The position numbers were made by a program, and so were the translations under genes. Shown one piece after another: positions 4,184-57,050 of a DNA stretch of 57,195 bases. The DNA lies in NCBI GenBank assembly GCA_050012755.1, contig JBEKGO010000009.1, positions 1 to 57,195 of the forward strand, given 5' to 3'. Numbering within the stretch: position 1 is the stretch's first letter; each line of letters begins with the position of its first letter. Source of the stretch: Candidatus Bathyarchaeia archaeon (GTDB taxonomy: Archaea > Thermoproteota > Bathyarchaeia > Bathyarchaeales > Bathycorpusculaceae). The notes beneath the pieces were generated by a model, which saw nothing but the letters and a program-made list of their open reading frames with translations, did not search any database and was not told the DNA's origin.

Positions 4184-4379
4184 AAAAAACCCAATTGATT
4201 ATTCAGACATAGTTATACAAAAACTTTGTCCTTAGATGTTTATGTGATGCACTAACGATTTGAAGGGCTTCAAAGACAAAGAAATCTGCTGAAGGAACTC
4301 ATTTTTGGCGGCATCAACATAAAAGAACTATACATAAGAAACAACTTGCACAAAGAAAGAGAACAATAAAGACAATGTT

Positions 4380-4534: not shown

Positions 4535-5068
4535 AACTCTTTACCTCCAACACAGGCAAATTTCCTGCTGAACTCAACTTCGGATTATTCTCCATATATG
4601 TTATTGCAAAACGCATTCTCAACCACTCAAACATGCCAATGATAACCGCATGTTTCAATACCAGTTATCAATTGAAGCCCTTCTCATGTACTTGCTTCCA
4701 CGAGTAACTGATATATTCCTGATACTGAAATATGCCTTTTAAGTGCTAAATTCACTTGGTTTTTTGAGGAGCAAGAAGAGCTCCTGACTAAAAAACGGAG
4801 GAGGTTTTTCCTCCCAATCAAGAGGGAACACATCCCTCTTTTGTTTATTGTTTTTCTAAGCTCTAAATAATTCCATACAAAGAAACGCTTGACTATCCTA
4901 GTTTCCGCCAACCTCACATTCGAGAGGTTTGCGCCTAATTTTAGGCGTTATTTTTCTCCATAACTTAGGTTATAGTGTGGATATTGTATAGTTTTTGGTA
5001 TAAATACATGATATACGAATGTTTTTATTACAATGGCACAATAGCTTTCTTCCAAGGTGAAAAATTAA

Positions 5069-6010: not shown

Positions 6011-6021
6011 GGCGAGGCAAA

Positions 6022-7332
6022 TTGGGTCTTAGAAGCTTTATAGAAGCGTTAGATAAAAAGGGCGAATTAACCAGAATAACAAATCCAGTTTCAACTGAGT
6101 ACGAAATGGCTGGAATAATAAGTGCTCTAGACGAGAAACCAGTCTATTTTGAAAAAGTCAAAGAATCAAGCTACCCCGTTGTAGCAGGTCTCATATCTTC
6201 AAAAGACCTCATTGCACGATCATTAGAAATAGGCAAAGACCAGCTACTACCTAAACTGTCTTCTGCCCTTGAGCATCCGCTGCCACCACAAGTTACAAAG
6301 AAAGGTGAATGCCAAGAAGTAATTGAAAATAATGTTGATTTAACTAAGCTACCTATAATGCGGTACACGGAAAAGGACGGCGGAAAATACATTTCATCCG
6401 CTGTTTCCATAATAGAAGACCCTGAATTCAGAACCCAAAATATGTGTTTCCACAGACTAATGGTGGTGGACAAGAACAGGTTTGTAGCCAGAATCGTTGA
6501 GAACAGAGGAACAGACACAGCCCTCAAGAAGGCTGGTGGAGAACTAGATATAGCCATTTGTATAGGTAACTCAACCGCTGTTCTCCTATCTGCAGCAACA
6601 ACTATGCCTATGGGTGTTGACGAGTTGGGGATGGCTAACGCGCTTGAAAAAACAGCATTAGTGCAGTGTAAAACCGTTGACCTTAAAGTGCCCCAAAACT
6701 GCGAAATAGTTTTAGAAGGAAGAATAACAAAGGAAAAAACCGCTGAAGGACCATTTCTGGACACAACAGGAACAATCGACCGCATAAGACAGCAACCCAT
6801 AATTGAAATTAAATGCGTCACACACAGAGAAAACCCGATCTTTCAAACCTTACTTCCAGGAAGAAGGGAACATCAATTCTTAATGGGAATGCCTAAAGAA
6901 CCAACAATCTTCAATGAAGTAAACAAAGTCTGCGAATGCAAAGACGTTTACATAACACCCGGCGGATGCAGTTGGCTTCACGCTGTTGTACAAATAAAAA
7001 AGAAAAACTCCGATGACGGGAAAAAAGCCATAAGCGCTGCTTTCGAAGGACATAAGTCGCTCAAGCACTGCGTCATCGTGGATGACGATATAGACATCTA
7101 TAATCCTCATGATGTCGAGTGGGCTATCGCAACAAGATTCCAAGCAGACAAAAACGCTATAATCTTGCCAAAGCAGGCCGGGTCATCTTTGGATCCCTCG
7201 GGAGATTTGACTGAGGGTAAAAAGGCAACCACTTGCAAGATGGGGTTAGATGCCACAATTCCCTTTGGAAAAACAGATAAAAGCTTCACGAAAGAACAAT
7301 ACCGAAAAGTTGATTTAAACAAGTTCTTGTGA
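6022..7332 (+). CDS. UbiD-family decarboxylase, probable trans-anhydromevalonate phosphate decarboxylase
   Basis: EIVLEG, EGPF, THRENPIF, VDDDIDI, VEWAIATRFQ, SSLDPS, KMGLDAT; located between mvk and the AcnX genes. Confidence 0.88.
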   Translation: MGLRSFIEALDKKGELTRITNPVSTEYEMAGIISALDEKPVYFEKVKESSYPVVAGLISSKDLIARSLEIGKDQLLPKLSSALEHPLPPQVTKKGECQEVIENNVDLTKLPIMRYTEKDGGKYISSAVSIIEDPEFRTQNMCFHRLMVVDKNRFVARIVENRGTDTALKKAGGELDIAICIGNSTAVLLSAATTMPMGVDELGMANALEKTALVQCKTVDLKVPQNCEIVLEGRITKEKTAEGPFLDTTGTIDRIRQQPIIEIKCVTHRENPIFQTLLPGRREHQFLMGMPKEPTIFNEVNKVCECKDVYITPGGCSWLHAVVQIKKKNSDDGKKAISAAFEGHKSLKHCVIVDDDIDIYNPHDVEWAIATRFQADKNAIILPKQAGSSLDPSGDLTEGKKATTCKMGLDATIPFGKTDKSFTKEQYRKVDLNKFL

Positions 7333-7337
7333 TTAGC

Positions 7338-8537
7338 ATGCATCTGACAGAAAAAGAGCATAAAATGCTGGACGGCGATGAAGGCTACGCTGTCCAGAAA
7401 AGCATGGAAATTCTCGTCGCCCTCGGCGACATATTCGGCGCAAAAAGCTTAATCAAAGTTGGCAGCGTCCAAGTCGCAGGAGTATCCTACCACAACCTAG
7501 GCGACGCAGGCTTAGAATTCCTTAACGAGTTAGCCAAAGACGGCAGAGTAAAAGTGCTAACCACCCTAAATCCTGCAGGAATGGACCTAGAAAATTGGCA
7601 ACAACTAGGAATCAGCCCAGAATTTGCCGAAAAACAAAATCTTGTAATCGATGCTTTTAAACGTATGGGCATACTTACCAGCTGCACATGCACGCCTTAC
7701 TTGATTGGCAATTTGCCAATCTACGGCGAACACGTCGCATGGTCTGAATCATCAGCGGTTACATTTGCAAACTCGGTGCTTGGCGCAAAAACGAATCGTG
7801 AAGGCGGCCCCTCGGCATTGGCAGCCGCTTTTGTTGGCAAAACACCCTGCTATGGGTTGCATTTGGATGAGAACAGAGTCCCCGATGTCCACGCGCAAGT
7901 CAATTCACCTTTATCAAAGCTTTCAGATTGGGGAGCATTGGGCTATGCGATTGGCAAAAAGGCAGAAAACAAAATCCCATACATCACAGGCATAAAAGCG
8001 GCTGAACTGGACGAGCTCAAATCGTTCTGTGCTTCCGTTGTAACTTATGGCGCAAAACCACTCTTTTACATAAAAGGCATAACACCTGGAGCCGAATTGC
8101 AAACTCAACCCAAAGAGAGTATGTCAATCGAGCAAAGTGACATCAAAAATGCTTACGACAACATTAACGATGAAGTAAGCGATATTGAACTTGTCTGCGT
8201 CGGTTGCCCACATTGTTCAATTAACGAAATCGCCAAAGTTGCTGAGCTGCTCAAAGGCAAAAAGGTGGCTGAAGGCACAGAATTTTGGGTTGCCACTTCA
8301 AGAACGGCTAAGCAGCTGGCAGATAAACGAGGCTACACCCAAGCCATTGAAGCGGCTGGAGCCAAATTTGCCTGCGACACGTGCATGGCAGTTGCACCAC
8401 TTAAAGGAAGGTTTAAATCGTTAGCAACAACCTCAGCTAAAGGCTGTTTCTACTCGAGACAGAATAACATGAAAACAAAAATGGGCAGCATCGAAGAATG
8501 TGTACAGGCAGCGGTGACCGGAAAATGGAACAGCTAA
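7338..8537 (+). CDS. Aconitase X large subunit (DUF521), phosphomevalonate dehydratase large subunit
   Basis: [42 protein letters not shown] motifs; operon context. Confidence 0.92.
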
Positions 8538-42173: not shown

Positions 42174-43700
42174 GTGGCTCAAGCAACCTTTGAAGAAATT
42201 AGCGCCTCTGATTTTTTCTATAGGAACAGAGACATAGCAGGCTTAACGAATCCTTCACGCGCTGTATTCGTCGCTATTCGAGAAATAGTAGAAAATTCAT
42301 TGGACGCTGCCGAGAGCCAGAAGATTCCACCGGACATTTATGTTCGTTTGTCTTATGAGGGAGAAGCTACCAAAGAAACTCAAATCTATAAGCTTCGTGT
42401 CGAAGACAACGGTAGCGGAATTCAACCTCGGTTTATACCCTCCGCTTTCGGCCAAGTCCTCTATGGCAGCAAATACAAACTCAAGCAAACAAGAGGCACA
42501 TTTGGTTTAGGCGGAAAAATGGCTGTCCTCTATGGACAAGTTACCACTCACCAGGCAGTTTACGTGACCTCGTCCACAGGGCAAGAAAAAATTTACAGTT
42601 TCAAATTAATGATCGACATCCAAAGGAACCGCCCAATAATTCTTGACCGCAAAGTCTTGATTAACAAAGACAATTGGCGCGGAACCATAGTCGAGTTTTC
42701 CCTTGAAGGCGATTATCTTAGGGCAATGCCAAAAATTCTTGATTATTTCAAACAAACAGCCATGGTTAATCCATATGCTAATTTAACGTTTGTTGACCCC
42801 AAAGGCAGGCTCTACAAGTTTATCCGTGCAACCACAGAGATGCCTGAACCGCCGACAGAAATATTGCCACATCCATACGGTGTAGACGTGGAACTTCTGC
42901 AACGACTTATCCAGATTACACCTTACAATAACATGTCAGATTTTCTGAAGGGTTCTTTTCACAGAGTCGGCGAAATCACGGCACAAAAATTCCTAGAATT
43001 CAGCCAATTAAGCCCCAGCAAGAATCCAAAGAGACTTTCCCATGAAGAAATAGTGCGGCTAATGCAGAACCTAAAGAAGTACAAGGATTTCTTGCCACCA
43101 GACGCTAGTTGCCTCTCACCTTTAGGAGAGGATCTGCTCAGGACTGGTGTCATGAAAGAGTTAAACCCCGAGTATCTTGTAGTTCACCAGCGTAAACCAT
43201 CCACTTATGCAGGCCACCCATTCATCGTTGAAATGGCAATTGCATATGGCGGCGGAGTGCCCAAACGCGGCACCTTTGTCATCTACCGTTTCGCCAACAA
43301 AATCCCCCTACTCTACGATGAAGCCAGCGACGTTTCATACCGAGTAATTTCAGCCCTGAACTGGCGACGCTACAAAGTGTCATCTGACATGCCCATCGCC
43401 ATAGTTGTTCACATTTGCAGCACAAAAGTGCCCTACAAAACGGTTGGAAAAGAATTCATTGCTGACAGACCCGAAGTGCGCCGTGAAGAGGCAAATGCGC
43501 TTCGTGAGGTTGCTCGTGAGCTTCAGCATTTCCTGTCACGTCAAGAGCACGTGCACATGGAGAAGAAGCGTCTGGGAATTTTCAGCAAGTACCTGCCAAA
43601 AATAGCGCAGTTCTCGGCAACTTTAGCTGGGGAAAAGCGAATACCAGATATTGATAAACTTTTGAAGAGTGTTCAGAAATATGGCGCAGAAGAAAGCTAA
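42174..43700 (+). CDS. top6B: DNA topoisomerase VI subunit B
   Basis: E.VENSLDA, VEDNGSG, Q.RG.FGLG, PHP.G, RFANKIPLLY. Confidence 0.97.
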   Translation: MAQATFEEISASDFFYRNRDIAGLTNPSRAVFVAIREIVENSLDAAESQKIPPDIYVRLSYEGEATKETQIYKLRVEDNGSGIQPRFIPSAFGQVLYGSKYKLKQTRGTFGLGGKMAVLYGQVTTHQAVYVTSSTGQEKIYSFKLMIDIQRNRPIILDRKVLINKDNWRGTIVEFSLEGDYLRAMPKILDYFKQTAMVNPYANLTFVDPKGRLYKFIRATTEMPEPPTEILPHPYGVDVELLQRLIQITPYNNMSDFLKGSFHRVGEITAQKFLEFSQLSPSKNPKRLSHEEIVRLMQNLKKYKDFLPPDASCLSPLGEDLLRTGVMKELNPEYLVVHQRKPSTYAGHPFIVEMAIAYGGGVPKRGTFVIYRFANKIPLLYDEASDVSYRVISALNWRRYKVSSDMPIAIVVHICSTKVPYKTVGKEFIADRPEVRREEANALREVARELQHFLSRQEHVHMEKKRLGIFSKYLPKIAQFSATLAGEKRIPDIDKLLKSVQKYGAEES

Positions 43701-44763
43701 GATACTTGAACGTCAAAACGAAGTCATCAACAGTCTTCATGAATTCGGCAGCAGAATCTATAGTCAGCTAGATCAAGGAGTTTTTCCAACTATTGAAATG
43801 CCGAGCCGTGGCACCGACAACATCGCCTACGACCCAACGCTGCGACAATACGTTTTAGGCGAGAGAAACGTCAGTCGAAGCGCCCGTAACATTCGCCATA
43901 TTAAGCCATTCACTCAGCTTGCATGGGCAGCAATGTTTAGTAACGAGCTTACTACTCAGCGCAAAACCAGCACTCTAAGAGACGTTTATTACTCAGCACA
44001 AGCCTACGAGATGACTTTCACCGATCAACAAGAATCTAACAACATTATCACCGATCTTGAAACCTTAACAGGTTTTGCCCGAGAAGACTTTCACATTTTC
44101 CCTGAAGAGCGCAGCGCAATTTTTGGCGATTTAGATATCGGCTACACTGTTCCTGGCTACGAAGGCAAAACTTTGAATTTAACCAGCCACCCAGACGGCG
44201 TGTTGATTGGTCCAGCCCTAACTTCAGCTGAGTTAATGAACACTAGAGCCGACAAAGTAATAGCTATCGAGAAAGGCGCTCTCTTCACAAGATTTATCGA
44301 AGAAAACGTACACAATAAGCATCACGCTTTGCTGATTTCTTGCGGTGGACAAGCCCCAAGACAAACCCGCAGTTTCATCCGACGTCTCCATGATGAATTG
44401 AATCTGCCAGTTTACATTTTGACTGATGGCGACCCATGGGGAATGCACATTGCGCAAGTCATCATCTCTGGCTCAGCCAACGCAGCACACCTAAGAGAAC
44501 TAAACACCCCTGATGCGGTTTGGAGCGGAGTTTGGGCAAGTGACATAATTGAGTACAAACTACCAACTGACCCCTTAGACGAAGTTGACATCAAGCGACT
44601 CTACGAGTTACAGAAAGATCCACGTTATCAAAACGACCCAATCTGGCAAAAAGAAATAAAGCTATTTCTTAAAATAAAAAGAAAAGCTGAACAGGAAGCT
44701 TTCAGCCGATACGGGTTAACCTACATTGTTGACGAATATTTGCCCACGAAATTAAAGAGCTAA
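43681..44763 (+). CDS. top6A: DNA topoisomerase VI subunit A
   Basis: STLRDVYY, AIEK, GQAPR.TR, TDGDPWG..I, KAEQEA. Confidence 0.97.
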   Translation: MAQKKAKILERQNEVINSLHEFGSRIYSQLDQGVFPTIEMPSRGTDNIAYDPTLRQYVLGERNVSRSARNIRHIKPFTQLAWAAMFSNELTTQRKTSTLRDVYYSAQAYEMTFTDQQESNNIITDLETLTGFAREDFHIFPEERSAIFGDLDIGYTVPGYEGKTLNLTSHPDGVLIGPALTSAELMNTRADKVIAIEKGALFTRFIEENVHNKHHALLISCGGQAPRQTRSFIRRLHDELNLPVYILTDGDPWGMHIAQVIISGSANAAHLRELNTPDAVWSGVWASDIIEYKLPTDPLDEVDIKRLYELQKDPRYQNDPIWQKEIKLFLKIKRKAEQEAFSRYGLTYIVDEYLPTKLKS

Positions 44764-44789: not shown

Positions 44790-45131
44790 TTAGGTTGTCT
44801 GAGGTTTTTCTTCTTGCTTACGATCAGGGTTAAATCTAGCAGCGATTTGCAGCCTTCCCACAATAGGCTTTTTGCCAATATTGAGTTCTGGTTGTTTTTT
44901 TCCGCATTCAGGGCAAAATTTCGAGACAGCTGGAATTCTGGTCAGGCATTTTGGACAGATTTTCAGCAGAATTGGTTGACGCAAGGGTGTACCGCAGAAG
45001 TTGCAGTAATTTGAGAATGAAGCGACTTGTGAGCCACAATTTGGGCATCTAATATACTGGGTATAGGTTGGAACTGGAAGCATGATAAAAGCGGAAAGGA
45101 TAATTAAACACCATGTTTGAATATGCCGCAA
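44790..45131 (-). CDS. Double zinc-ribbon protein
   Basis: CPNCG..YCNFCG..CPKC..FCPECG; start codon uncertain. Confidence 0.75.
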   Translation of the reverse strand: MRHIQTWCLIILSAFIMLPVPTYTQYIRCPNCGSQVASFSNYCNFCGTPLRQPILLKICPKCLTRIPAVSKFCPECGKKQPELNIGKKPIVGRLQIAARFNPDRKQEEKPQTT

Positions 45132-45831: not shown

Positions 45832-46911
45832 TTGCCAAAAAATTACACTTACACCGATGCAGGAGTAAATCGCAAGCAACGCGTCGAATCTAAAAAAGCT
45901 CTAAAAAACCTGCAACAAACCTACAAATACAGCCTTTTTGGCGGCGTCATGCATCTGCCTTATGGCAATATCTTTCCAATCACAAAAAACACTTTTTTGG
46001 ACCTTGTCATCGAAGGCGTAGGCACTAAAGTTCTCCTCGCAGAGCTTGCGCAAAAATATGATACCATAGGAATAGATGCAGTTGCTATGGCAGTCAACGA
46101 TGTAATTCGGTCAGGGGCCAAACCACTCTCGATAGCAGACAACATCCATGCACAAGAAAGCAACCCTATGCTGGTTAAAGAGTGGCTGAAGGGAATCACG
46201 CAAGGCGCAGAGGAAGCAATGTGTCCAGTTACAGGTGGAGAAACGGGTGACGTTGCAGAAATAATTAGAGGCTTGACAGAAAAAGCTGGGTTTGATATGG
46301 TTGTTGCTTCTGTTGGCCAGGTTGAAAAACCAGAAATCATAACTGGAAAAAACATCAAAGCTGGGGATCCAATTATCGGTTTAGCCAGCAGTGGGTTGCA
46401 CAGCAACGGCATAACGATGGCTAGAAAAATCCTTTTCAAGCAATGGGGCGGAAAATATCAACCCAACGATAAACCAGCAGGCATAGATCGCGAAATAGTT
46501 CTTGAAGCACTTGAACCTACAAAAATCTATGTCAAACCCGTACTCAAGCTTGCCAGTGAAGTAAAAGTTAAGGCAGCAGTCCACATAACAGGAGATGCTT
46601 ACATGAAATTCAACAACCTTGCTGCAGTCTCGCCAGGCATAGGTTTCGAATTCAATAACTTCAAACCACAACCCATTTTCGGCTTAATCCAAAAAACAGC
46701 TGCAACGCTGGGCTTTACAATAACAGATGAGGAAATGTTCAAGACTTTCAACATGGGCTGGGGCTTCGGCATAATCGTTGACAAAACAGACATCGATAAA
46801 GCTATGAACACGCTTGAACAAAACAACATAAAACCTGAGATAATAGGCAAAGTAACTGACAAACAAACGGTGGAAATAAAGCATCAGGACAAAAAGTTGG
46901 TTTTAACGTAA
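45832..46911 (+). CDS. purM: Phosphoribosylformylglycinamidine cyclo-ligase (AIR synthetase)
   Basis: Y.DAGV, EGVGTK, GIDAVAM.VND, GGET, SSGLHSNG, HITG, TFNMG.G. Confidence 0.96.
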   Translation: MPKNYTYTDAGVNRKQRVESKKALKNLQQTYKYSLFGGVMHLPYGNIFPITKNTFLDLVIEGVGTKVLLAELAQKYDTIGIDAVAMAVNDVIRSGAKPLSIADNIHAQESNPMLVKEWLKGITQGAEEAMCPVTGGETGDVAEIIRGLTEKAGFDMVVASVGQVEKPEIITGKNIKAGDPIIGLASSGLHSNGITMARKILFKQWGGKYQPNDKPAGIDREIVLEALEPTKIYVKPVLKLASEVKVKAAVHITGDAYMKFNNLAAVSPGIGFEFNNFKPQPIFGLIQKTAATLGFTITDEEMFKTFNMGWGFGIIVDKTDIDKAMNTLEQNNIKPEIIGKVTDKQTVEIKHQDKKLVLT

Positions 46912-46969: not shown

Positions 46970-47221
46970 ATGAAATACTCCGCTAAAATAGAGGTCAGTC
47001 TTAAACCAGGCCACAGCAACCCTGAAGGAGAAACAACCGCCCATTTACTAAAAGAACTCGGCTACAAAGTCGAAACTGTTGACGTGAGCAAAGTTTACAC
47101 TGTCACTCTTGAAGCATCATCAGTGAAAGAAGCCAAGTCAAAAGCAGAAGAAATGAGCAAGCGCCTTTTAGCAAACCCAACCAAAGACAATTACACAATA
47201 ATTGTTGAGGAGCAGAAATGA
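46970..47221 (+). CDS. purS: FGAM synthase subunit PurS
   Basis: LKPG..NPEG, LLANP..D.Y. Confidence 0.95.
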   Translation: MKYSAKIEVSLKPGHSNPEGETTAHLLKELGYKVETVDVSKVYTVTLEASSVKEAKSKAEEMSKRLLANPTKDNYTIIVEEQK

Positions 47222-49599
47222 ACGCTAACCTCTACATCCACCGAAAAGCAGGCTACACACTCTGCGAAGCTAATATAACCAAAGCCACAGACCAACAGCT
47301 GATCGAAATCAGCAATGAATTAGCTTTGGGGTTAAGTTTAGATGAAATGAAAAGTATCCAAGCCTACTTTAAAGCGGAAGGTAGAAACCCAACAGATGTT
47401 GAGTTACAAACCATCAGCCAAACATGGTCAGAACACTGCTATCACAAAACCTTCAAAGGAAAAATTCTCTTAGACGGCAAAGAAATTGACAGCCTCTTCA
47501 AAACTTACATTGCAAAAGCAACAAAAGAAATCAAAGCGCCCTGGTGTTTTAGTGTCTTTGAAGATAATGCTGGTATTGTGAAATTTGACAAGGGCTATGG
47601 TATAGCTGCGAAAGTTGAAACCCACAATCACCCATCTGCTGTTGAACCTTTCGGCGGCGCAGCCACAGGCGTTGGAGGCGTAATTCGCGACATCCTCGGC
47701 GTATGGGCAGATCCAATCGCATGTACAGATGTTTTGGGCTTTGGACCATTAGATTACGATTATAACAAGTTGCCTGCAGGTGTAAAGCACCCAAAATATG
47801 TCTACATGGGCGTCACTGCAGGCATCAGCGCTTATGGAAACAATATGGGCATCCCAACCATTAACGGAGCAATATACTTCGACGAAAGCTACACAGGCAA
47901 CGTCACTGTCTATTGCGGATGCATTGGACTTTTACCATTAAGCAAATTTACAAAAAACGCCAAGCCAGAACATATAATTGTTATTGCTGGAGGCAAAACA
48001 GGACGCGACGGAATCCACGGTGTCACCTTCGCCTCAGCTGAATTAACTGAGAAATCGGAAGAAATTTCTCGTCCAGCAGTCCAAATTGCAGACCCAATCG
48101 AAGAAGAAAAGGTCAAAAGGGCAATCGTTGAAATCCGCGATTTACAATTGGCTTCGGCGACGACTGACCTTGGCGGAGGCGGTTTATCCTCAGCGATCGG
48201 CGAAACTGCAGAAAAATTCGATTGCGGAGTAACCATTGAACTTGCTAAGGTGCCTTTGAAGTATCAGGGTTTGGCTCCTTGGGAAATTTACATTTCAGAA
48301 TCACAGGAAAGAATGCTCATAACTGTGCCGCCAGAAAACCTGGAACGAGTTATGGCAGTTTTTGAAAAAGAAGACGTAGAAGCCACAGCGATAGGCAAAC
48401 TAACCACTGCACGCCGCCTGCAACTAAACTTTAACGGCAAAAAAGTTGCCGACATGGATATGGCTTTTCTGTTTACACCATGCAAAAGCATGAAAGTTGC
48501 AACCATTGAAAAGCAAACCTTCACTGAACCGCAATTTCCTGAACCACAGACCCTAACAGAAACTCTTATGCGACTTCTTTCTGCGCCTAACATCGCAAGT
48601 AAAGAAAGCGTCATTCGCACTTATGACCACGAAGTCAAAGGCAACACAGCCCTTAAGCCGTTGCAGGGAGAGTATGCTGGACCAAACGACGCCGCTGTGC
48701 TGAAACCGCTGGATGATTCGTGGAAGGGCTTGACAATTTCTTGCGGCATGAACCCAAATTATGGTAAAATAGATGTTTATTGGATGGCTGCTTCAGCTAT
48801 TGATGAGGCAGTTAGAAACAACATTGCTGTTGGCGGGAGAAGAATTGCCCTGTTAGATAATTTTACTTGGGGAAACCCTGAGAAGCCAGAGCGTCTCGGA
48901 TCATTAGTAAGAGCGTGCGAAGCTTGTTATGATTTCGCAACTGCTTTTAGGACGCCGTTTATCTCTGGAAAAGACAGTCTATACAACGAGTCTCCGCTAG
49001 GTCCTGTTACTCCGACGCTTCTAATAACTGCAGTAGGTGTAATTCCAAACCTTCAATCCACAACCTCGATGGATTTGAAAGCTCCTGGCAACCTGCTATA
49101 CATTATCGGGGAAACGTTCAATGAACTTGGCGGTTCGGAATATTACAAACTCAAAGGCTACTTAGGCGCAAGTGTACCAAAAGTGAAAGGTGCAAAAGCA
49201 AAACGCACATTCAAAGTTGTGACTAAAGCCATCGATTTAGGCTTAATCAAATCTTGTCATGACCTCTCGGAAGGTGGGTTAGCGGTGGCGGCGGCAGAGA
49301 TGGCGTTTGCAGGTGGCTATGGGTTGGAGTTGTATTTAGGTAAAGTCCCTGGCAAAGAGTTGGAGCGCAACGATTTTATTTTGTTTTCTGAATCGAATAG
49401 CCGCTTCCTTCTGGAAGTCGCAGAAAATGATAGGAAAGAATTTGAGGTTCTGATGAAGGGCAAGGGCTGTGCTCTGATCGGGAAAGTAACCAAAGATGAG
49501 AAGCTGCTTATTCAAGGATTAAACCAGAAAATAGTAGTCACTGCTTCGCTTGGAGAACTATGGCAAGCATGGAAGAAAACGTTGAGCGGGGAAGCCTAA
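47218..49599 (+). CDS. purL: FGAM synthase subunit PurL
   Basis: WSEHC.HK, ETHNHPSA.EPF.GAATG.GG..RD, SESQERM, SGKDSLYN. Confidence 0.97.
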   Translation: MNANLYIHRKAGYTLCEANITKATDQQLIEISNELALGLSLDEMKSIQAYFKAEGRNPTDVELQTISQTWSEHCYHKTFKGKILLDGKEIDSLFKTYIAKATKEIKAPWCFSVFEDNAGIVKFDKGYGIAAKVETHNHPSAVEPFGGAATGVGGVIRDILGVWADPIACTDVLGFGPLDYDYNKLPAGVKHPKYVYMGVTAGISAYGNNMGIPTINGAIYFDESYTGNVTVYCGCIGLLPLSKFTKNAKPEHIIVIAGGKTGRDGIHGVTFASAELTEKSEEISRPAVQIADPIEEEKVKRAIVEIRDLQLASATTDLGGGGLSSAIGETAEKFDCGVTIELAKVPLKYQGLAPWEIYISESQERMLITVPPENLERVMAVFEKEDVEATAIGKLTTARRLQLNFNGKKVADMDMAFLFTPCKSMKVATIEKQTFTEPQFPEPQTLTETLMRLLSAPNIASKESVIRTYDHEVKGNTALKPLQGEYAGPNDAAVLKPLDDSWKGLTISCGMNPNYGKIDVYWMAASAIDEAVRNNIAVGGRRIALLDNFTWGNPEKPERLGSLVRACEACYDFATAFRTPFISGKDSLYNESPLGPVTPTLLITAVGVIPNLQSTTSMDLKAPGNLLYIIGETFNELGGSEYYKLKGYLGASVPKVKGAKAKRTFKVVTKAIDLGLIKSCHDLSEGGLAVAAAEMAFAGGYGLELYLGKVPGKELERNDFILFSESNSRFLLEVAENDRKEFEVLMKGKGCALIGKVTKDEKLLIQGLNQKIVVTASLGELWQAWKKTLSGEA

Positions 49600-50415
49600 A
49601 TGAACCAAGAAGAAATCAAAGTGTGCATTTTACGTGTAGGCGGAACCAACTGCGACTCAGAAACTCAGCGGGCTTTTCTTGAGTTGGGCGTCCAAGCAGA
49701 GACTTTGCATGTTAACGAATTGATAAAACGTAGAAACCTGTTGGATTTTCAGGTTCTTGTTTTTCCAGGTGGCTTTTCATTCGGAGATTACGTTCGTTCT
49801 GGCGTGATTTTTGCAAGACACCTCTCAGCCAAATTGGGCAAAGAAATGAAAACGTTCATTGACGAAGGCAGGCCAATTTTGGGCATTTGTAACGGCTTCC
49901 AAATCCTTGTCGAATACGGTTTGCTTCCGGGCTTTGAAGGTATCAGCGAATACCCCGAAGCTTCGCTTGCGTCCAATAGCCAAGGTTACAAGTGCCGCTG
50001 GGTCTACCTAAAGCAAGAAAACAAGGGCAAATGCGTTTTCTCAAGCAAGGTCCCTGTCGGCAAAGTGCTCAGGATGCCTATTGCTCACGGCGAAGGAAGG
50101 CTACTGTTTCCCAAAGAGAAAGAAGAGGAAATGCTTGCACGGCTAATTGACGAGGACATGGTTGTTTTCCGTTACTGCGACAAAAATGGTCAGGTTGCCG
50201 ATGGCAAGTATCCCGATAATCCAAACGGCTCAACCTACGATATCGCTGGTATATGCAACAGGGAAGGAAACATTTTCGGATTGATGCCTCATCCAGAGAG
50301 AGCAATGTATTGGTGGCAACAACCCAATTGGACACGTGAGCAACAGATGTTGCAGTATGGAGACGGAAAACTAATTTTCCAAAGTATAATCGACAACCTA
50401 AAAAAGAGTTGCTAA
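49600..50415 (+). CDS. purQ: FGAM synthase glutaminase subunit PurQ
   Basis: GTNCD.E, PGGFSFGD, GICNGFQIL, AHGEG, NPNGS, MPHPER. Confidence 0.97.
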   Translation: MNQEEIKVCILRVGGTNCDSETQRAFLELGVQAETLHVNELIKRRNLLDFQVLVFPGGFSFGDYVRSGVIFARHLSAKLGKEMKTFIDEGRPILGICNGFQILVEYGLLPGFEGISEYPEASLASNSQGYKCRWVYLKQENKGKCVFSSKVPVGKVLRMPIAHGEGRLLFPKEKEEEMLARLIDEDMVVFRYCDKNGQVADGKYPDNPNGSTYDIAGICNREGNIFGLMPHPERAMYWWQQPNWTREQQMLQYGDGKLIFQSIIDNLKKSC

Positions 50416-50483: not shown

Positions 50484-50627
50484 ATGCCAGCAAAAACAAG
50501 GAAATATGAAAAGCCTACTGAATCTTTGTACGGCTCAGTGAAATTGGATAAGCCCATAGACGACCCAAAGCGTGTTGCTAGAGAGTATATTTGGAAAAAA
50601 GAATTGAAAAAAATGAAAGCGCATTAA
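50484..50627 (+). CDS. 47-aa basic hypothetical peptide (possible antitoxin-like remnant)
   Basis: MPAKTRKYEKPTESLYGSVKLDKPIDDPKRVAREYIWKKELKKMKAH; lies between convergent operons. Confidence 0.4.
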   Translation: MPAKTRKYEKPTESLYGSVKLDKPIDDPKRVAREYIWKKELKKMKAH

Positions 50628-50646: not shown

Positions 50647-51561
50647 CTAATAAAGAAATGCTAAATCCTTAGCGTAGGGCAAGCCTGCGCGGGCACCCAT
50701 CGTCGTAACGCTTCTGGAAGCCACAAAATTCGCTATTTGCCCACATTCGTAGAGACTTTTTTTGTTGATTAAGCCGTAGAGGAAACCTGCGCAGAAAGCG
50801 TCTCCGGCACCTGTCGTGTCAACTGCCTTAACTTTGAAAGGTTCTACTTTGAGTTGTTCTTCTGCGTCTGTAACGAAGCAGCCTTTGTCGCCAAGTTTGA
50901 CTGCGACAATTTTAACGCCCAACCCAATCATTAAATCTGCGCCTTTGCGGTAATCTGTTTCGCCTGTTAAAAGTTCAAGTTCAAAAGCGTTGGGCATCAA
51001 AACGCAAGTGCTGCGGATTATTGGTTCTATAGCTGCAAAACCTTTCTGTGCATAGACAGAGCCTGGGTCAAAGCTGATTTTAACGTCATTGGGCAGGACG
51101 GCCAAAAGTTTTTTTTGGGCGCGAAAAGATTTTTCGCCGACGAATGAGGAGAAATGCACATATTTTGTTTGAGAAAGGTAGCTGTAATTGATTTCTCGGG
51201 GTTCGATTGTGTCGTTGACGCCTGAGTTGATATATAGGGCTCTTGCACCTTTTTTGTCCACGAAGCCCATTACTGAACCACTTTTGCCTTTCGTTGCTTG
51301 AATGATGCCGCCAGTATCTACGCCTTCATTACTGAAACAATCAATTTGCAGTTTGCCTTCTCGGTCATTGGCTACTTTTCCAATGAATCCTGTTTTGCAG
51401 CCGAGCCTTGCCAATCCAACTATAGTGTTTGCGGCTGAGCCACCGCAGGCTTCCGCATATTCTTCGACGAAGCTTTCTTCTTCAGCGCCCGCGAGCTTTT
51501 GCACTTTAAATAACATATCAACGTTGAGCGCACCGAAACCGACTACATCAAATTTCGTCAT
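50647..51561 (-). CDS. PfkB/ribokinase-family kinase (EhaT-like)
   Basis: GGSAAN....ARLG, FDPG, PN..E, VKLG..G, DTTGAGDAF..GF; ATGA overlap with the ftr-like stop. Confidence 0.93.
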   Translation of the reverse strand: MTKFDVVGFGALNVDMLFKVQKLAGAEEESFVEEYAEACGGSAANTIVGLARLGCKTGFIGKVANDREGKLQIDCFSNEGVDTGGIIQATKGKSGSVMGFVDKKGARALYINSGVNDTIEPREINYSYLSQTKYVHFSSFVGEKSFRAQKKLLAVLPNDVKISFDPGSVYAQKGFAAIEPIIRSTCVLMPNAFELELLTGETDYRKGADLMIGLGVKIVAVKLGDKGCFVTDAEEQLKVEPFKVKAVDTTGAGDAFCAGFLYGLINKKSLYECGQIANFVASRSVTTMGARAGLPYAKDLAFLY

Positions 51562-52466
51562 AGAAACAATTCCTTCAACGGGATTTTATATTCACCTAGT
51601 TTACCGCCGTAGTTGCCAGCGGAAATTTTCACTACACCATCAATGCCTAAAACGGCTTCGATGCCAACTTTAGTAGCCTTTTTAACAACGTCTAAGGAGA
51701 CACCATCAAGAACTATTTCAGCTACGTACTCTACGCCCTCGGGAACAAGAGATTCTTTGCCAAGCCGTTTCTTGAGTGAAGGACAATATAGATGGTTGGT
51801 TGTTGGGCCAATCTTGGGAAAATGTGTTTCTGGTTTTGAACCTGCAGAGCAAACATCAAAGGGGGTAACAATACCCTCAACTTTATGGATTGCAGCCAAG
51901 GCGCTTTCTCCTGCTTGTTTTAATGCTTGTTTTGTTTTGCACATAACCCAAAAATTTCCGCCCATAACGCCCTTTGCATAACCGAGATAACGCTCAATAA
52001 TAAAATCAGAAACCATTAAAGGAACAACAATGACATCTTTGCCATGTCGTTTTTCAACCCATTCGTAGCCGTCTCCGCAGTGCCCCACAGTCTCCATCAT
52101 GTCCAATTTGCCCTCGGTCTTGGGTAGAGCGTCGTAGACTGCAGTAAAGGGCTTAACAAGAATGTCTTGGCGGATGCGGTAGGAAAGTTCAGTTTCGAAC
52201 TTTCTTAGTGATTGCTCGAAGGTTTTTTTGGTGTTTATTTCTCCCCAGAACTGCAAGATCGCGCCGACCCTTTTGTCAGGCGTCTCTTGTGAGGTGAGGT
52301 ACTTTTCTACTCCACCCTCAGTTCTGCCGATAACAACGGATGGCGTGGCGGTTGAATCTTCAGCGGCCTTATGCAGAATCTCTTCATCGTCTGCTGTAAC
52401 TATTAATCGGCAAAAAATGCCAGTGAACGCTTCCGCAAACGTATCCTCAATTAGCACCTTACCCAT
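51558..52466 (-). CDS. Formylmethanofuran:H4MPT formyltransferase (Ftr) homolog, EhaS-like paralog
   Basis: IEDTFAEAF, E.GVE, TPD.R.GA, GDGYE, GV.GGNF, S.GSK, TN..YCPSL, EIV.DG, ISAGNYGGKLG. Confidence 0.88.
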   Translation of the reverse strand: MGKVLIEDTFAEAFTGIFCRLIVTADDEEILHKAAEDSTATPSVVIGRTEGGVEKYLTSQETPDKRVGAILQFWGEINTKKTFEQSLRKFETELSYRIRQDILVKPFTAVYDALPKTEGKLDMMETVGHCGDGYEWVEKRHGKDVIVVPLMVSDFIIERYLGYAKGVMGGNFWVMCKTKQALKQAGESALAAIHKVEGIVTPFDVCSAGSKPETHFPKIGPTTNHLYCPSLKKRLGKESLVPEGVEYVAEIVLDGVSLDVVKKATKVGIEAVLGIDGVVKISAGNYGGKLGEYKIPLKELFL

Positions 52467-53549
52467 TTATCCAAGCCTCCCAACAGCAACTCCGCGAACC
52501 TTTTTTCTAAATTCGCTACTTTCTTTTATGAGCAATTCCATATTTTGGGCTGTTACTATTTGAGCTTTAGGCAAACCATTAGGATACACGCCTGAAAGCT
52601 GTTTAAGCAAAGCAGCATCCACTTCACTGTATTCTAATGCTGGAAAGCCCCAAGACTGCAGAGCGTTGATTGTAACTTCTTTTCCGAATTTACAGAACAA
52701 ATCGGCAATAACTGCAGTCACCAGGTTGCTTTCTGAGAGAACAGCCACTTCTGCATTCTTGACTGCATAGCTGTTACCGTTGAAAGATACTGTTAAGCCG
52801 CCGTTGTCTCGGACCAGTTTGAAGGCTTCAACGTCTGTTATGCTGTCGCCCACATACATTACATCCGCTAAATCAGCGCCCAAACGCTTTACCACATCCC
52901 GGATTGCCTCAGCCTTCTGTTCGCCGCCAACCGTCACCACATCAACGAGAAATTTGCCCACAAACATTTTAGGGATTTCGTTCCAAAAAATCTCGCCCAA
53001 ACGCTGAATAGCCACTTGATCACTGTGCGAAAAATCTTCAATGCTACTTGCTTCTTTGGGAATTTCAATCAGGTGCATTTGTGAGATTTCTTGGGCTATT
53101 TTTTTTAGTTGGTCTTTTTCTTGCGGAGTGACAGCGAATTTGTCAAGGCTAACTTTTGTGCAGTACGTGTTTTTGTATGGAAATTCGATGGCTTTGCAAA
53201 GGGCTTTGATATAGTGTTGGTAACTGGTGCTAACTATGAAAGCGTCAGCTACGACTTGCATATGGTGCAGGGTGGTTCTGCTATTAGCGATTAAAATAAT
53301 GTTGTTCTCGGAAAACGCATCCATCTGCCTGTCAGTTAAACCGTACGCTTTAAGAAAAGGCAAAATGAGCTTCAAAGTGCTTCCTGCAGAATAACCGGGT
53401 TTCCGCAGAATATCGGCCAGTACATCGTCGTATTTGCTAATGTTAGTGAAAAGTTCGTCGCCGTTTGGAATAAAATTTGCTGCCAACTCAAACGCGTTGT
53501 CATTTTTTGAGATTGGCCCTTCACAATCGGAAATGAAGATACGCTTCAC
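52467..53549 (-). CDS. HAD-superfamily phosphatase-like protein (EhaR/COG4030-like)
   Basis: ISDCEGPIS.NDNAFE, ISKYDD.L, G.TLKLI.PF, IVSTSY, YVGDSITD, SFNGN.YA; GTG start 2 nt after the purD stop. Confidence 0.82.
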   Translation of the reverse strand: MKRIFISDCEGPISKNDNAFELAANFIPNGDELFTNISKYDDVLADILRKPGYSAGSTLKLILPFLKAYGLTDRQMDAFSENNIILIANSRTTLHHMQVVADAFIVSTSYQHYIKALCKAIEFPYKNTYCTKVSLDKFAVTPQEKDQLKKIAQEISQMHLIEIPKEASSIEDFSHSDQVAIQRLGEIFWNEIPKMFVGKFLVDVVTVGGEQKAEAIRDVVKRLGADLADVMYVGDSITDVEAFKLVRDNGGLTVSFNGNSYAVKNAEVAVLSESNLVTAVIADLFCKFGKEVTINALQSWGFPALEYSEVDAALLKQLSGVYPNGLPKAQIVTAQNMELLIKESSEFRKKVRGVAVGRLG

Positions 53550-53551
53550 AC

Positions 53552-54958
53552 TTAATGCCTCAAATTCTCCATGTGCTTTACGCTTTTTGCAATGTGCTGT
53601 TTTGAGGCTACGTCGGTTCGGTTCCATAATGCACCGCCAGAAATTGCTTTGGCACCTTCTTGGCTGATTTGGCGGGCTTCTTCAATGCTTTTGCCGATGC
53701 CTAAAACGCCTATTGCACGGGATTTTAAGGCGTAGTTTTTACCGTTTTTTGTTTCCATTGATCCAGGGTAAATTCGAATGTTTTTGCCGTATTTTTTGGT
53801 TAATGCATAAGCATCTGAGAGAGAAACTGGCGAGTTAAGGGCTGATTTATCTACTTGACCGGGGAACACTTCTGCGTAGCCACCGTAGTCGGGCGGAACC
53901 TTGTAGGTTAAGACTGACGCTGTCTTTTCCAACTCTATAGTTGTCAAATTTCCTTCAATCATTCGGAAACATAAGTCGACGAAGTCGTCTTTGATCAGAG
54001 CAAGGAGATTAATTATTTCTGGGTCTCCAGGTCGGCTGTTGTTTTCGAGAACTTTTATACCTTTTCCAGTGTGCATAAAAGCTAAGTAGAGAGGGACACC
54101 TCTGAGGGCGGAAGCATCTTTGATTTTTGTGCTCCAGCCTTTAAAAATTTTGTCAGCTAACAAAAGCTCCTGCTCGCATTCAGCGTCGGTCAGGAAAGGT
54201 AATTTGTCGTCGATGTCTTTGTACGAGCCCATTCCACCTGTGTTTGGACCTTTGTCGTCGTCGAAAGCACGTTTGTAGTCACGCGTATCAGGCAGCGGAA
54301 TTAAGTGTTTGCCATCACAGAAAGCCATGAAACTTGACTCTTCCCCGTCTATCTTTTCCTCAATGATAACTGAGCCATATTGGAAGTTGGACATGAAATG
54401 CTCAAAAAGTTGTTCTCGATTTGCAAAGTGGTCTCCCCAGACGCCAACGCCTTTTCCCAATGCTGGCTTATCAGGCTTAACTACAGCCTGATTATCTAAT
54501 TCATCTAGCCAATGGTAAACATCGGCTTTAATGTCTGAGTCTTTGTAATCGGCTGGGTCAAAAACTTTGAATCGTGGATTGGCTTCTGGTGCAATCTCAT
54601 CAAAAAGAACCCGCTGCTCAACTTTGCTGACTTCTATGGCGTATTGTTGCTTAGGACAAATAACAGGTATGCCTGTGTGTTTCTCAACTTGGTCGCGGAT
54701 GCCTTCAATTATGGGTTTTTCTGAGCCGACTAAAGCAAATCTGATTTTGCTCTTGTTTGCTTCTGCGAATTTGCAGATTTCCTCCACATCTAGATTCGGG
54801 ATGACAACGTGTTTGGCGGCTTTTTCCGCGTTGAATGGGTTGCGTTGTTTGTCAGCGATGTAAAGTTCAACTTGATATTTTTTGCTCTGTAGAAGCGCGT
54901 CAACCATAGCGATCTCTCTTGCACCGTAAGAAACAACCAAGACGCCTATTTTTTCCAT
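53552..54958 (-). CDS. purD: Phosphoribosylamine--glycine ligase
   Basis: GARE.A, E.SK, VVKP....GKGV, IEE..GEE.S, DYKRA.D.D.GPNTGGMGS, E.NSRPGDPE. Confidence 0.95.
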   Translation of the reverse strand: MEKIGVLVVSYGAREIAMVDALLQSKKYQVELYIADKQRNPFNAEKAAKHVVIPNLDVEEICKFAEANKSKIRFALVGSEKPIIEGIRDQVEKHTGIPVICPKQQYAIEVSKVEQRVLFDEIAPEANPRFKVFDPADYKDSDIKADVYHWLDELDNQAVVKPDKPALGKGVGVWGDHFANREQLFEHFMSNFQYGSVIIEEKIDGEESSFMAFCDGKHLIPLPDTRDYKRAFDDDKGPNTGGMGSYKDIDDKLPFLTDAECEQELLLADKIFKGWSTKIKDASALRGVPLYLAFMHTGKGIKVLENNSRPGDPEIINLLALIKDDFVDLCFRMIEGNLTTIELEKTASVLTYKVPPDYGGYAEVFPGQVDKSALNSPVSLSDAYALTKKYGKNIRIYPGSMETKNGKNYALKSRAIGVLGIGKSIEEARQISQEGAKAISGGALWNRTDVASKQHIAKSVKHMENLRH

Positions 54959-55019
54959 TAGAGACTCACCCTTAAGCAAAGAAAATAGAAGGATTGCTTA
55001 ATTTGCTTTGCCACCGCAG

Positions 55020-56501
55020 TTACGGCTGAACTTCTTCCGACTCATAGATCCTTGATTTTTCTTGATATCCAGCCAAGAATCTCTGTTTCATCGCGTCAGC
55101 CATTTTTTGTGCGCAGGGCGTTGGATACTCTCCGTTGATGCAGGCCAAGCAGAGTTGGTCTTTTGTTTGACCCGTTGCCTTCACTAACGCTTCAATGGAC
55201 TGATAGCATACGCCATCTGCACCTATGATTTCAGCTATACCTTCTGCATCATGTCTTGAACCGACAAGTTGCCCATACGTTGACATATCAATTCCGTATA
55301 AGCAAGGACCAATAATTCGTGGAAAAGTAACAAAAACGTAGACTTTTTTGGCGCCTGCCTTCCGCAATTTATCAATTATAACTTTGGTTGTATCTCCCCT
55401 AACTATGCTGTCCTCAGTTACGATAACTCGTTTTCCATCAACTTTGGAACCCAAAATGTTGATCTTCTTATCAATCGTGGAAAAGCGCTCGACGTTCAGC
55501 AGAATGAAAGCTCTCTCTGTAACATAGCGATGTCGTCTTGACGCCCGTTCCCATCTCAAACCTGAAGCTTCATGGACCCCCATCGCTGAGTCGTCTCCTG
55601 TTTCAGGCACGGAGAGAATAATGTCACTTTCTTTTACGACTTTAGGATTTTCTTTTACAATGTTTCTTCCGAAATCTTCTCGAATTTCATAAACGTATTT
55701 GCCGTTGAACCTTGAATCTGGCCTAGCAAAATAAGCATATTCAAAAGCGCAGAAGGCTGGGCGAGGATTTTGTATAATTTGGATGCGTTTGAAACCGTCT
55801 TTTGAAACGGTTACGAGTTCGCCTGGTTTTAACTCAAAATCTCTTACAAAACTGTTCATGTCGAGGCCTACGGTTTCAGAGGAGAAAGCATAAGTTTTGG
55901 CAACGGGGTCATGCCCGGCGCATAAGGGTTTTATACCATGTGGATCTTTGAAAGCGAAAAAGTCGCCGTCTCCCGTTATGCCTGTCACGGAGAATGCGCC
56001 GTCTAAACTTTCCATAACCCCTTTGGCTGCAGACGGCAGGTCTTTGCCTTGTTTTAGGGCTAAGAGCATTTTGTTACATACAATGTCAGAATCGCAACTG
56101 TAAGTAAAGTTTGGAAAGTTTTGATACATTTCTTTCTTCAGTGGCAGTGTGTTGACGATGTTGCCGTTAAATGAGAGCGCAAGTTTTATGCCATTTACTT
56201 GAGCGACGACTGGTTGGGTGCCCTCTATAATGGAGACATCGTCGCATTTACCTGAGGTTGTGTACCTCACATTGCCGATGCCTATTGATCCAGGCAGACG
56301 GCCAAACCATTCTTTTATGGCGTCATTTTTTACCTTAGGAACTAAATCCAAGTTTTTGTAGGTAAAAAATTGTTTATCACTATAAGTAAGAAATCCGTGC
56401 GATTGGTGCCCTCGATGGTTTTGAGCCCGCAACCCCCAATAAACATATGGAAAGACAGGTTGATTTTCATAGTTTATTGCGCCAAAGATACCGCAGCCCA
56501 T
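55020..56501 (-). CDS. purF: Amidophosphoribosyltransferase (Fe-S type)
   Basis: CGIFG, HRG, RYTTSG, NGNIVN, CAFE..YFARPDS, EDSIVRG.T, PCLYGIDM, CLAC..G.YP. Confidence 0.96.
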   Translation of the reverse strand: MGCGIFGAINYENQPVFPYVYWGLRAQNHRGHQSHGFLTYSDKQFFTYKNLDLVPKVKNDAIKEWFGRLPGSIGIGNVRYTTSGKCDDVSIIEGTQPVVAQVNGIKLALSFNGNIVNTLPLKKEMYQNFPNFTYSCDSDIVCNKMLLALKQGKDLPSAAKGVMESLDGAFSVTGITGDGDFFAFKDPHGIKPLCAGHDPVAKTYAFSSETVGLDMNSFVRDFELKPGELVTVSKDGFKRIQIIQNPRPAFCAFEYAYFARPDSRFNGKYVYEIREDFGRNIVKENPKVVKESDIILSVPETGDDSAMGVHEASGLRWERASRRHRYVTERAFILLNVERFSTIDKKINILGSKVDGKRVIVTEDSIVRGDTTKVIIDKLRKAGAKKVYVFVTFPRIIGPCLYGIDMSTYGQLVGSRHDAEGIAEIIGADGVCYQSIEALVKATGQTKDQLCLACINGEYPTPCAQKMADAMKQRFLAGYQEKSRIYESEEVQP

Positions 56502-56642: not shown

Positions 56643-57050
56643 TTATTTTTGCATGTACTCTAGAATTCCGAAGTGGTTGCCTTCCGGATCCAATGCCAGT
56701 GCCCACCAGCCTAAACCGGGTATCTCCATCTTTGGCACCACAATTTTGCCGCCTAATGCTTCGATCTTTTTGCTATATTCTTCGACTGACTCTACCGAAA
56801 TATAGTTTGTCGGCTTAGCCATATCAGGCATGGAAGCATCTTTCCGATTGTACAATCCGCCGTTGACGCCAGGTCGGACAGGCATCATTGTCTTTTCATC
56901 CACGGGAACAGTTCCCACAAGATAATAGGTTGTCGGTCCAGGGTATTTTTCCATTGTCCAGCCAAACAACTCGACATAAAATTTCTTCAACTTTTCGATG
57001 TCGTTAGCTGGAATTTCAAAATGAACAATTGTATGATCCAAAAAAATCAC
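56643..57050 (-). CDS. VOC/glyoxalase-family protein
   Basis: IVHFEIPA.D....KFY..LFGW, GVNGG, GG.IVVPK.EIPG.G, DPEGN.FG. Confidence 0.92.
   Translation of the reverse strand: MIFLDHTIVHFEIPANDIEKLKKFYVELFGWTMEKYPGPTTYYLVGTVPVDEKTMMPVRPGVNGGLYNRKDASMPDMAKPTNYISVESVEEYSKKIEALGGKIVVPKMEIPGLGWWALALDPEGNHFGILEYMQK

Follow-up and report, generated by a model that had tools for sequence, protein, structure and literature searches.

Purine Genes of the Locus

The window analyzed here is a stretch of 57,195 nucleotides (nt), which represents contig C9 (JBEKGO010000009.1, positions 1 to 57,195) of the genome of a Candidatus Bathyarchaeia archaeon (assembly GCA_050012755.1; 2.41 Mb in 65 contigs, 100% complete and 0.97% contaminated). 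It contains a cluster of genes for the de novo synthesis of purines, which includes a divergent paralog of the formyltransferase Ftr, referred to here as Ftr2, a candidate enzyme for the third step of the pathway, that is, the formylation of glycinamide ribonucleotide (GAR) or of its riboside.

Five genes of this cluster lie on the minus strand. The purF gene (amidophosphoribosyltransferase, step 1; 55020-56501) is recognized by the Pfam domains GATase_7/GATase_6 and by TIGR01134 (311 bits, cut-off 350), and its product begins with MGCGIF, in which the cysteine nucleophile is present. Its stop codon is located 61 nt ahead of the ATG of purD (GAR synthetase, step 2; 53552-54958), a divergent subtype with the GARS_N/A/C domains and a score of 238 bits on TIGR00877 (cut-off 288). 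The likely start of purD is the ATG at 54958, which is preceded by GGTGA, while the longest open reading frame (ORF) begins at a TTG at 54979. The next gene encodes a HAD-superfamily, phosphatase-like protein of the AF1437 family (52467-53549), with weak Pfam HAD matches, and its likely start is the GTG at 53549, which shares the reading frame of the conserved region, the longest ORF running from 53627. The Ftr2 gene (51558-52466; FTR and FTR_C domains) follows, and the series ends with a ribokinase-like kinase of the PfkB family (50647-51561; PF00294, 172 bits).

These genes face a plus-strand group that forms the set for steps 4 and 5, composed of purM (45832-46911; AIRS/AIRS_C), purS (46970-47221; PurS), purL (47218-49599; FGAR-AT_linker, GATase_5), and purQ (49600-50415). 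The earlier note on this DNA had described the five genes as co-oriented and converging on the purM group, with the last four tightly coupled, and steps 1, 2, 4, and 5 as present in the window, and all of this is borne out by the coordinates and by the Pfam and NCBIfam matches. The TAA of purD (53554-53552) is separated by two bases from the GTG of the HAD gene at 53549, the HAD stop codon abuts the ATG of Ftr2 at 52466 with no gap, and Ftr2 and the PfkB gene overlap in an ATGA at 51561-51558.

Absence of a Known Enzyme for the Third Step

Profile searches extended to the whole genome an absence that the earlier note had reported for the window, that of PurN and PurT, the standard enzymes of step 3. 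The PurN family (PF00551) had no match in the whole genome, and nothing in it scored above 52 bits on the PurT profile (TIGR01142), the matches being CarB and an MfnD-like ligase. One candidate for a hidden PurT, an ATP-grasp protein of 410 amino acids on contig C14, was rejected, being MfnD-like (154 bits, under the cut-off) and encoded between mfnA (tyrosine decarboxylase, 487 bits) and mfnF (one_C_unchar_1, 327 bits), in a cluster at positions 3413-7381 of that contig. Neither FolD nor formate-tetrahydrofolate ligase (FTHFS) was found in the whole genome.

The one-carbon (C1) route encoded by the genome is based on tetrahydromethanopterin (H4MPT) and methanofuran, and comprises a canonical Ftr, Mch, FwdA, and the mfnA-mfnD-mfnF cluster. 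The canonical Ftr gene, a second copy in keeping with the paralogy assumed in the earlier note, is found on contig C17, and its product scores 310 bits against the solved structure PDB 1m5h, compared with 181 bits for Ftr2.

The Divergent Formyltransferase

The sole domain matches of Ftr2 are PF01913 (FTR, the distal lobe; 147 bits) and PF02741 (FTR_C, the proximal lobe; 185 bits), which cover residues 3-300, and neither PurN (PF00551) nor PurT (ATP-grasp) is a homolog. In NCBIfam, the protein scores 337.7 bits on the subfamily NF002554 (cut-off 297) and 241.4 bits on the equivalog TIGR03119 (cut-off 292.6). In the trees, the canonical Ftr/FhcD clade (support 100/99) takes in all 15 of the Bathyarchaeia rows sampled for the canonical copy, Ftr1, and leaves out every Ftr2 row, so that the paralog does not group with canonical Ftr. 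The monophyly of Ftr2 itself is not rejected (p-AU 0.42). The deepest Ftr group recovered in a search of representative genomes, which was considered as a possible methanogen Ftr2, was rejected, since it corresponds to Asgard Ftr.

Glu250 and 43 other positions conserved with canonical Ftr are retained in Ftr2. This glutamate is invariant in alignments of 11, 9, and 20 sequences, and is aligned with the E of the motif VYEIVING in 1m5h. In FhcD, Glu252 is taken to stabilize the oxyanion (PMC6926001), and Glu250 aligns as its predicted counterpart. The fixed changes of Ftr2 are C130, I219, P221, and a two-residue deletion after F203 in the canonical FPGG loop. Because the catalytic-type positions are kept and the differences are fixed, Ftr2 looks like an active formyltransferase with an altered specificity.

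All the database names encountered for Ftr2 are those of an ordinary Ftr, a practice that inflates the apparent counts of Wood-Ljungdahl genes in the Bathyarchaeia and that the present annotation corrects. Long fusion proteins that contain Ftr are of the canonical Fhc/Fwd type, and have no link to PfkB or the HAD protein. A prediction of the complex of Ftr2 with PfkB gave a score of 0.00, which provides no answer, either for or against binding.

Distribution Across the Bathyarchaeia

A phylogenetic profile was compiled from 61 class-level Bathyarchaeia genomes, which were searched for Ftr2, PurT, PF00551, PurD, the HAD protein, PfkB, PurP, Mch, and FwdA. The matches to Ftr2 have an identity of at least 51%, clear of Ftr1 at 36-43%, and are found in 17 of these genomes (including G056, where just a fragment is present, at the end of a contig), distributed over 10 families. 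PurD is present in 45 genomes, of which 17 have Ftr2, nine a PurT-like protein, 17 a PF00551 protein, and two none of the three, and no two of these proteins occur together in any of the 45. The two genomes with none are G042 and G053, the latter with a C-terminal fragment of PurT on a frame of 88 amino acids. The expectation of the earlier note, that the paralog would be present where purN and purT are absent and would be clustered with pur genes, is upheld by all 17 Ftr2 genomes, which are PurD-positive and in which PurN and PurT were not found. Among the other PurD-positive genomes, a PurT or PurN-family protein is present in 26 of 28. The exclusivity has a Fisher p of 1.6e-10, a value that overstates the case, since related genomes are not independent. 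The 16 PurD-negative genomes are without Ftr2, PurT, PF00551, and the HAD protein, although Ftr1 is present in most.

Individual assignments were consistent with this pattern. A PurT-like match of 175 bits in G001 is PurK, with a PurK_C domain, and the PurT of G006 is a true one, matching a solved PurT far better than PurK. Nine PF00551 proteins, from eight of the 17 genomes, were all best matched as PurN, three of them over the cut-off and the others at 74-100 bits. Independent changes of state are indicated in two families. The first, f9, includes both Ftr2 genomes (G011, G035) and PurT genomes. In the second, f2, one genome (G014, 98% complete) is without PurD, the HAD protein, and Ftr2 but has retained Ftr1, Mch, FwdA, and two copies of PurP, and it looks as if de novo purine synthesis was lost there together with the module. 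A second PurP acting as a formate-dependent GAR ligase was also considered and rejected, the PurP copy number not tracking Ftr2, with a single match in eight of the 17 Ftr2 genomes, and two in the PurT genomes G005 and G016.

Orthologs of the HAD protein were recovered in 21 of the 61 genomes, which are the 17 Ftr2 genomes and four with a HAD-linked, PurN-like subtype (G002, G010, G034, G028), and in 39 of the 301 genomes of a sample of the phylum, all of them Bathyarchaeia. This confinement rules out a general role of the HAD protein in the supply of phosphoribosyl pyrophosphate (PRPP).

Conservation of Gene Order and Replacement in Place

The order of the genes recurs far more often than expected by chance, and is conserved in the best 80 of 547 related loci, all of which are Bathyarchaeia-type records. 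The HAD gene is found directly before Ftr2 in 78 of these 80 loci, PfkB after Ftr2 in 75, and purD before the HAD gene in 74, the shortfalls being due mostly to contig ends, and pur genes convergent with the module are also found in many of them. In the genomes of the profile, purD is followed directly by the HAD gene in all 17 with Ftr2, and Ftr2 by PfkB in 15 of the 16 that could be assessed. All four genes are contiguous in 11 genomes. In G038 and G044, purD-HAD and Ftr2-PfkB form separate pairs, and the two pairs are divergent in G001. The HAD and PfkB genes are part of the same module as Ftr2, which goes beyond the earlier note.

In at least 11 genomes without Ftr2 (G002, G010, G034, G028, G040, G058, G052, G037, G049, G016, and G006), the neighbor of purD is PurN or PurT. 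In two of them, G034 and G028, the order is purF-purD-PurN-like-HAD-PfkB-FolD, in which a PurN-like gene occupies the slot of the formyltransferase and the HAD and PfkB genes are kept. A folate-type version of the module, with a PurN-like protein and FolD, and HAD and PfkB retained, exists, then, alongside the version with Ftr2.

The PurN-like proteins concerned are a subtype of a family of long proteins (258-330 amino acids), which score 74-100 bits on TIGR00639 (cut-off 150) and are found in G012, G024, G060, G030, G049, G048, G002, G034, and G028. The catalytic motifs NLHP and LDEGP are conserved in the HAD-linked proteins. Their N-terminal glycine-rich loop reads S-T/S-G-R-D in all three cases, versus S-G-x-G-S/T-N/D in all nine of the other PurN and PurN-like proteins. 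This loop would be the site of the GAR 5'-phosphate in the PurN of Escherichia coli and, if so, the change would fit an unphosphorylated acceptor.

The Companion Proteins of the Module

The PurD of the module genomes forms a subtype with 50-75% identity to the PurD of the window, and standard PurD proteins, which score 300-430 bits, are 24-32% identical to it. One exception was noted in G031, in which Ftr2 and the HAD protein are paired with a PurD of the standard type.

In the HAD protein, the motifs D34-x-E36-G-P, S133-T134, K238, and G260-D-S-I-T-D265 are invariant across 19 orthologs, and the C-terminal tail is conserved. The invariant positions include those of the HAD catalytic motifs (D34, S133/T134, K238, and D261/D265), with the residue at +2 an invariant glutamate, rather than an aspartate. 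The AlphaFold2 model (mean predicted local distance difference test, pLDDT, of 89.3) has as its closest solved structure 1Y8A, which is AF1437 of Archaeoglobus fulgidus, with a Foldseek E-value of 1.6e-21 and a target-normalized TM-score of 0.92, and a profile match of 170 bits (E 6.8e-49). The match to HAD proteins of the phosphoserine-phosphatase type is a loose one of fold (TM of approximately 0.4), far behind AF1437. No discussion of the function of AF1437 was found in the literature.

The best NCBIfam match of the PfkB protein is the ribokinase TIGR02152, at 171.9 bits against a cut-off of 299.65, with the other equivalogs also far under theirs, which places this kinase, on profile scores, in a predicted subfamily of its own. 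The motifs GALNxD, GGSAAN (G40-G41), PNxxE, and DTTGAGDAF (D248-T-T-G-A-G-D254) are conserved in 15 orthologs. Its nearest solved relatives are ribokinases (160-179 bits), followed by the nucleoside kinase MJ0406 (134) and the entry 1tyy (113), which we take to be an aminoimidazole riboside kinase. The aminoimidazole riboside kinase of Salmonella is a precedent for a PfkB kinase that returns a dephosphorylated purine intermediate to the pathway.

Proposed Function of the Module

In the Bathyarchaeia that use H4MPT and methanofuran, the Ftr2 module is probably the step-3 formyltransferase, in the place of PurN or PurT. This assignment is drawn from the absence of PurN and PurT, the conserved linkage of the module, and the mutual exclusivity of Ftr2, PurT, and PurN. 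The proposal of the earlier note, that the Ftr paralog formylates GAR or its riboside, is strongly supported in this respect by comparative genomics, as a candidate activity, and all the checks by sequence analysis suggested in that note had outcomes in its favor. With Ftr2, the GAR transformylases would gain a third class, unrelated to the other two.

The unit would consist of the divergent PurD, the AF1437-type HAD protein, Ftr2, and the ribokinase-like PfkB. The chemistry of Ftr is an exchange of the formyl group between N5 of the pterin and the primary amine of methanofuran (PMC6926001), and Ftr2 would keep this exchange, with the amine of glycinamide in the place of methanofuran, a swap that would need just a remodeled amine site. 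The donor may be either N5-formyl-H4MPT or formylmethanofuran, and the former is slightly favored, because the pterin-dependent pair of a PurN-like protein and FolD replaces Ftr2 in situ. Formylmethanofuran is a possible donor because both compounds are made in this genome. The transfer from formyl-H4MPT to an amine is reported to cost approximately +4.4 kJ/mol (PMC6926001).

If the module does catalyze step 3, formylation may take place on the nucleoside, for which the chances appear somewhat short of even. This route is suggested by the strict co-occurrence of the phosphatase-like and ribokinase-like genes with either kind of formyltransferase. The HAD protein would strip the 5'-phosphate from GAR, Ftr2 would formylate the resulting glycinamide riboside, and PfkB would re-phosphorylate the product to formylglycinamide ribonucleotide (FGAR), the substrate of an ordinary PurLSQ. 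Such a cycle would use one ATP, as PurT does, and a transfer that is otherwise close to equilibrium would be drawn forward and made irreversible. The alternative, within the same assignment to step 3, is that Ftr2 would formylate GAR directly, with the HAD protein and PfkB as accessories.

Alternative Explanations and Counter-Evidence

It is unlikely that Ftr2 is a second normal isoenzyme of Ftr, kept in the pur cluster by co-regulation or history, with some other enzyme formylating GAR. Such an isoenzyme would account for the passing of the NCBIfam cut-off of the Ftr subfamily, for the conservation of 44 positions of canonical Ftr, Glu250 among them, and for the four of the 17 Ftr2 genomes in which no other Ftr was found, with FwdA and Mch in three of them and Mch in the fourth. 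It would not account for the limitation of Ftr2 to PurD-positive genomes without PurN and PurT (17/17), or for the lack of Ftr2 in every one of the 16 PurD-negative genomes, the same C1 pathway, with Ftr1, being present in most of these. The position of Ftr2 outside the canonical clade, with fixed changes in loops that are otherwise invariant, also speaks against an isoenzyme, as does the PurN-like gene found in the formyltransferase slot of G034 and G028, and no alternative candidate for step 3 emerged, given that the extra PurP does not track Ftr2 and that the ATP-grasp protein of contig C14 is MfnD-like.

Two other functions have been considered, both of which are very improbable. The module may supply a substrate to the pathway, either formate for PurP, by the transfer of the formyl group from formyl-H4MPT to methanofuran and its release as in Fhc, or PRPP for PurF, through a recycling of ribose phosphate by the HAD protein and PfkB. 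PurP, which requires formate, is present in all 17 Ftr2 genomes, the PfkB is most similar to ribokinases, and a bacterial precedent for the passage from formyl-H4MPT through a furan to formate is described for Fhc (PMC6926001), but step 3 would be left without an enzyme in 17 genomes. A need for formate is shared by the PurT genomes, which also have PurP, and a need for PRPP by all genomes that make purines, but neither the HAD protein nor Ftr2 is found in these other genomes, and the domain fusions of the FwdA/FwdC type belong to canonical Ftr, rather than Ftr2. Alternatively, the HAD protein, Ftr2, and PfkB might make some other formylated ribosyl compound, for instance a modified nucleoside or a cofactor, linked to purD through a shared precursor, which would be in keeping with the uncharacterized subfamilies to which all three belong, with the lack of a known function for AF1437, and with the divergent PurD of the module genomes, which falls under the curated cut-off. 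The single PurD homolog of each genome must nevertheless serve purine synthesis, purF and purQ-purL-purS-purM lie on either side of the cluster, and this reading does not explain why Ftr2 never occurs together with PurN or PurT.

A number of points weigh against the assignment of Ftr2 to step 3, or against parts of the mechanism. The evolutionary events behind the mutual exclusivity are limited in number. Four Ftr2 genomes (G031, G035, G001, and G007, which are 96, 88, 87, and 98% complete, respectively) show no canonical Ftr. Since each of the four has Mch, and three also have FwdA, the canonical reaction may still be catalyzed by Ftr2, at least within this subset. Two genomes (G012 and G030) combine a divergent PurD with a PurN-like protein and have no HAD protein, and the thermodynamic pull of the nucleoside route gives no reason for a folate-type, PurN-like enzyme to need HAD and PfkB. 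In its discussion of the donor, the 2011 review of Brown et al. (PMC3261824) held formyl-H4MPT to be non-functional, and considered the N10-formyl form. Chadwick et al. (2022, PMC9012536) report Ftr2 together with PurN in two groups of anaerobic methanotrophic archaea (ANME), ANME-2a and ANME-2b.

The Missing Formyltransferase of Other Archaea

In archaea that are prototrophic for purines, a gap at this step of a pathway with no other gaps has been on record since 2011, if not earlier (PMC3261824), and the enzyme had yet to be identified in 2022, according to PMC9012536. In the account of Brown et al. (PMC3261824), GAR formyltransferase is missing in the Archaeoglobi, the Methanobacteriales, and M. 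kandleri, and methanofuran is not mentioned in the text of that review. The labeling described there for M. stadtmanae, in which the C8 of the purine comes from the C2 of acetate, fits a pterin-bound donor. Chadwick et al. (PMC9012536) describe an Ftr2 clade that includes the Archaeoglobales, M. kandleri, Methanothermobacter, ANME-1, and ANME-2a/2b, and report ANME-1, the Archaeoglobales, and the Methanobacteriales to be without PurN and PurT, the enzyme being "as yet unidentified". The passages of that paper on these two subjects do not connect them. In Methanothermobacter, the eha operon is described as ending in an Ftr-like gene and a ribokinase-like gene with no known role (Kaster et al. 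2011, PMC3087415), and AF1437, the closest solved relative of the HAD protein, is from A. fulgidus, a species without PurN and PurT.

No paper was found that proposes an Ftr paralog as a GAR formyltransferase, or that contains both "FGAR" and "methanofuran". The literature found describes no third step at the level of the nucleoside, with glycinamide riboside appearing just as a by-product in human enzyme defects. The nucleoside cycle with N5-formyl-H4MPT as donor, carried out by an Ftr2-PfkB pair (EhaS/EhaT) and homologs of AF1437, might be the missing GAR transformylase of the Methanobacteriales, the Archaeoglobales, Methanopyrus, and ANME-1, a tentative extension that is rather doubtful as a whole.

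The module represents a specific and testable candidate for the missing archaeal GAR formyltransferase. If confirmed, the H4MPT/methanofuran C1 pool would be wired directly to nucleotide synthesis, a link that was set aside by the 2011 review, and a role would be provided for the EhaS-like Ftr2, the HAD proteins of the AF1437 type, and a ribokinase-like subfamily of PfkB. The nucleoside route, if true, would show ATP being used in a novel manner to drive a group transfer that lies close to equilibrium.

Other Genes of the Window and the Genome

A second purine cluster, on contig C30 (17800-22200), contains purE, purC, and two tandem purP paralogs, and a search of the whole genome with PF07826 gave no match to PurO, an inosine monophosphate (IMP) cyclohydrolase. 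Between the converging purQ and PfkB genes, a lysine-rich ORF of 47 amino acids (50484-50627, plus strand) has no Pfam match, and was matched by tblastn in just four of 99 related loci. A glyoxalase-fold gene (56643-57050, minus strand) is located upstream of purF, a synteny that is shared by less than half of the 80 related loci. Just upstream of purM are the gene of topoisomerase VI subunit A (43669-44763, plus strand) and that of a double zinc-ribbon protein (44790-45131, minus strand).

Comparison With Known Systems

Ftr2 belongs to the same two-lobe fold family as Ftr and FhcD (PDB 1ftr, 1m5h, 1m5s, and 6s6y), with an identity of approximately 38%, and shares with them the 44 conserved positions, including the oxyanion-aligned glutamate. 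It differs in its position outside the canonical clade, with fixed substitutions and the two-residue deletion of the FPGG loop, and in the location of its gene, which is found in a pur cluster together with phosphatase-like and kinase genes. Its distribution tracks the presence of PurD and the absence of PurN and PurT, rather than the C1 pathway.

In relation to PurN and PurT, Ftr2 is proposed for the same step of the pathway, is encoded, as they are, beside purD, and never occurs with either of them in the 45 PurD-positive genomes. It is not homologous to either the folate-dependent PurN or the formate- and ATP-dependent PurT, having another fold and another C1 carrier, and it is accompanied by the HAD protein and PfkB, which the standard enzymes do not need.

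The HAD protein of the module has the motifs D-x-E-G-P, YDD, STSY, GDSI, and FNGNEYA in common with AF1437, although the two are just 27% identical and the match, which covers positions 4-322 of the 375 of the profile, stops short of the C-terminal tail. The PfkB protein belongs to the same family as the ribokinases and nucleoside kinases, with which it shares the catalytic GAGD and NxxE motifs and the ribose-binding N-x-D / GG..N, but it remains under every curated NCBIfam cut-off.

The closest parallel to the Ftr2-PfkB pair is EhaS/EhaT of Methanothermobacter, where a divergent Ftr is likewise paired with a ribokinase-like gene, as described by Kaster et al. (PMC3087415), although that pair ends a hydrogenase operon, whereas the one described here is part of a pur cluster. 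The Ftr2 of the Archaeoglobales, M. kandleri, and ANME-1 is found in lineages that are reported to be without PurN and PurT, as is the case here, a likeness that is drawn from the accounts given in the papers (PMC9012536, PMC3261824), rather than from the sequences.

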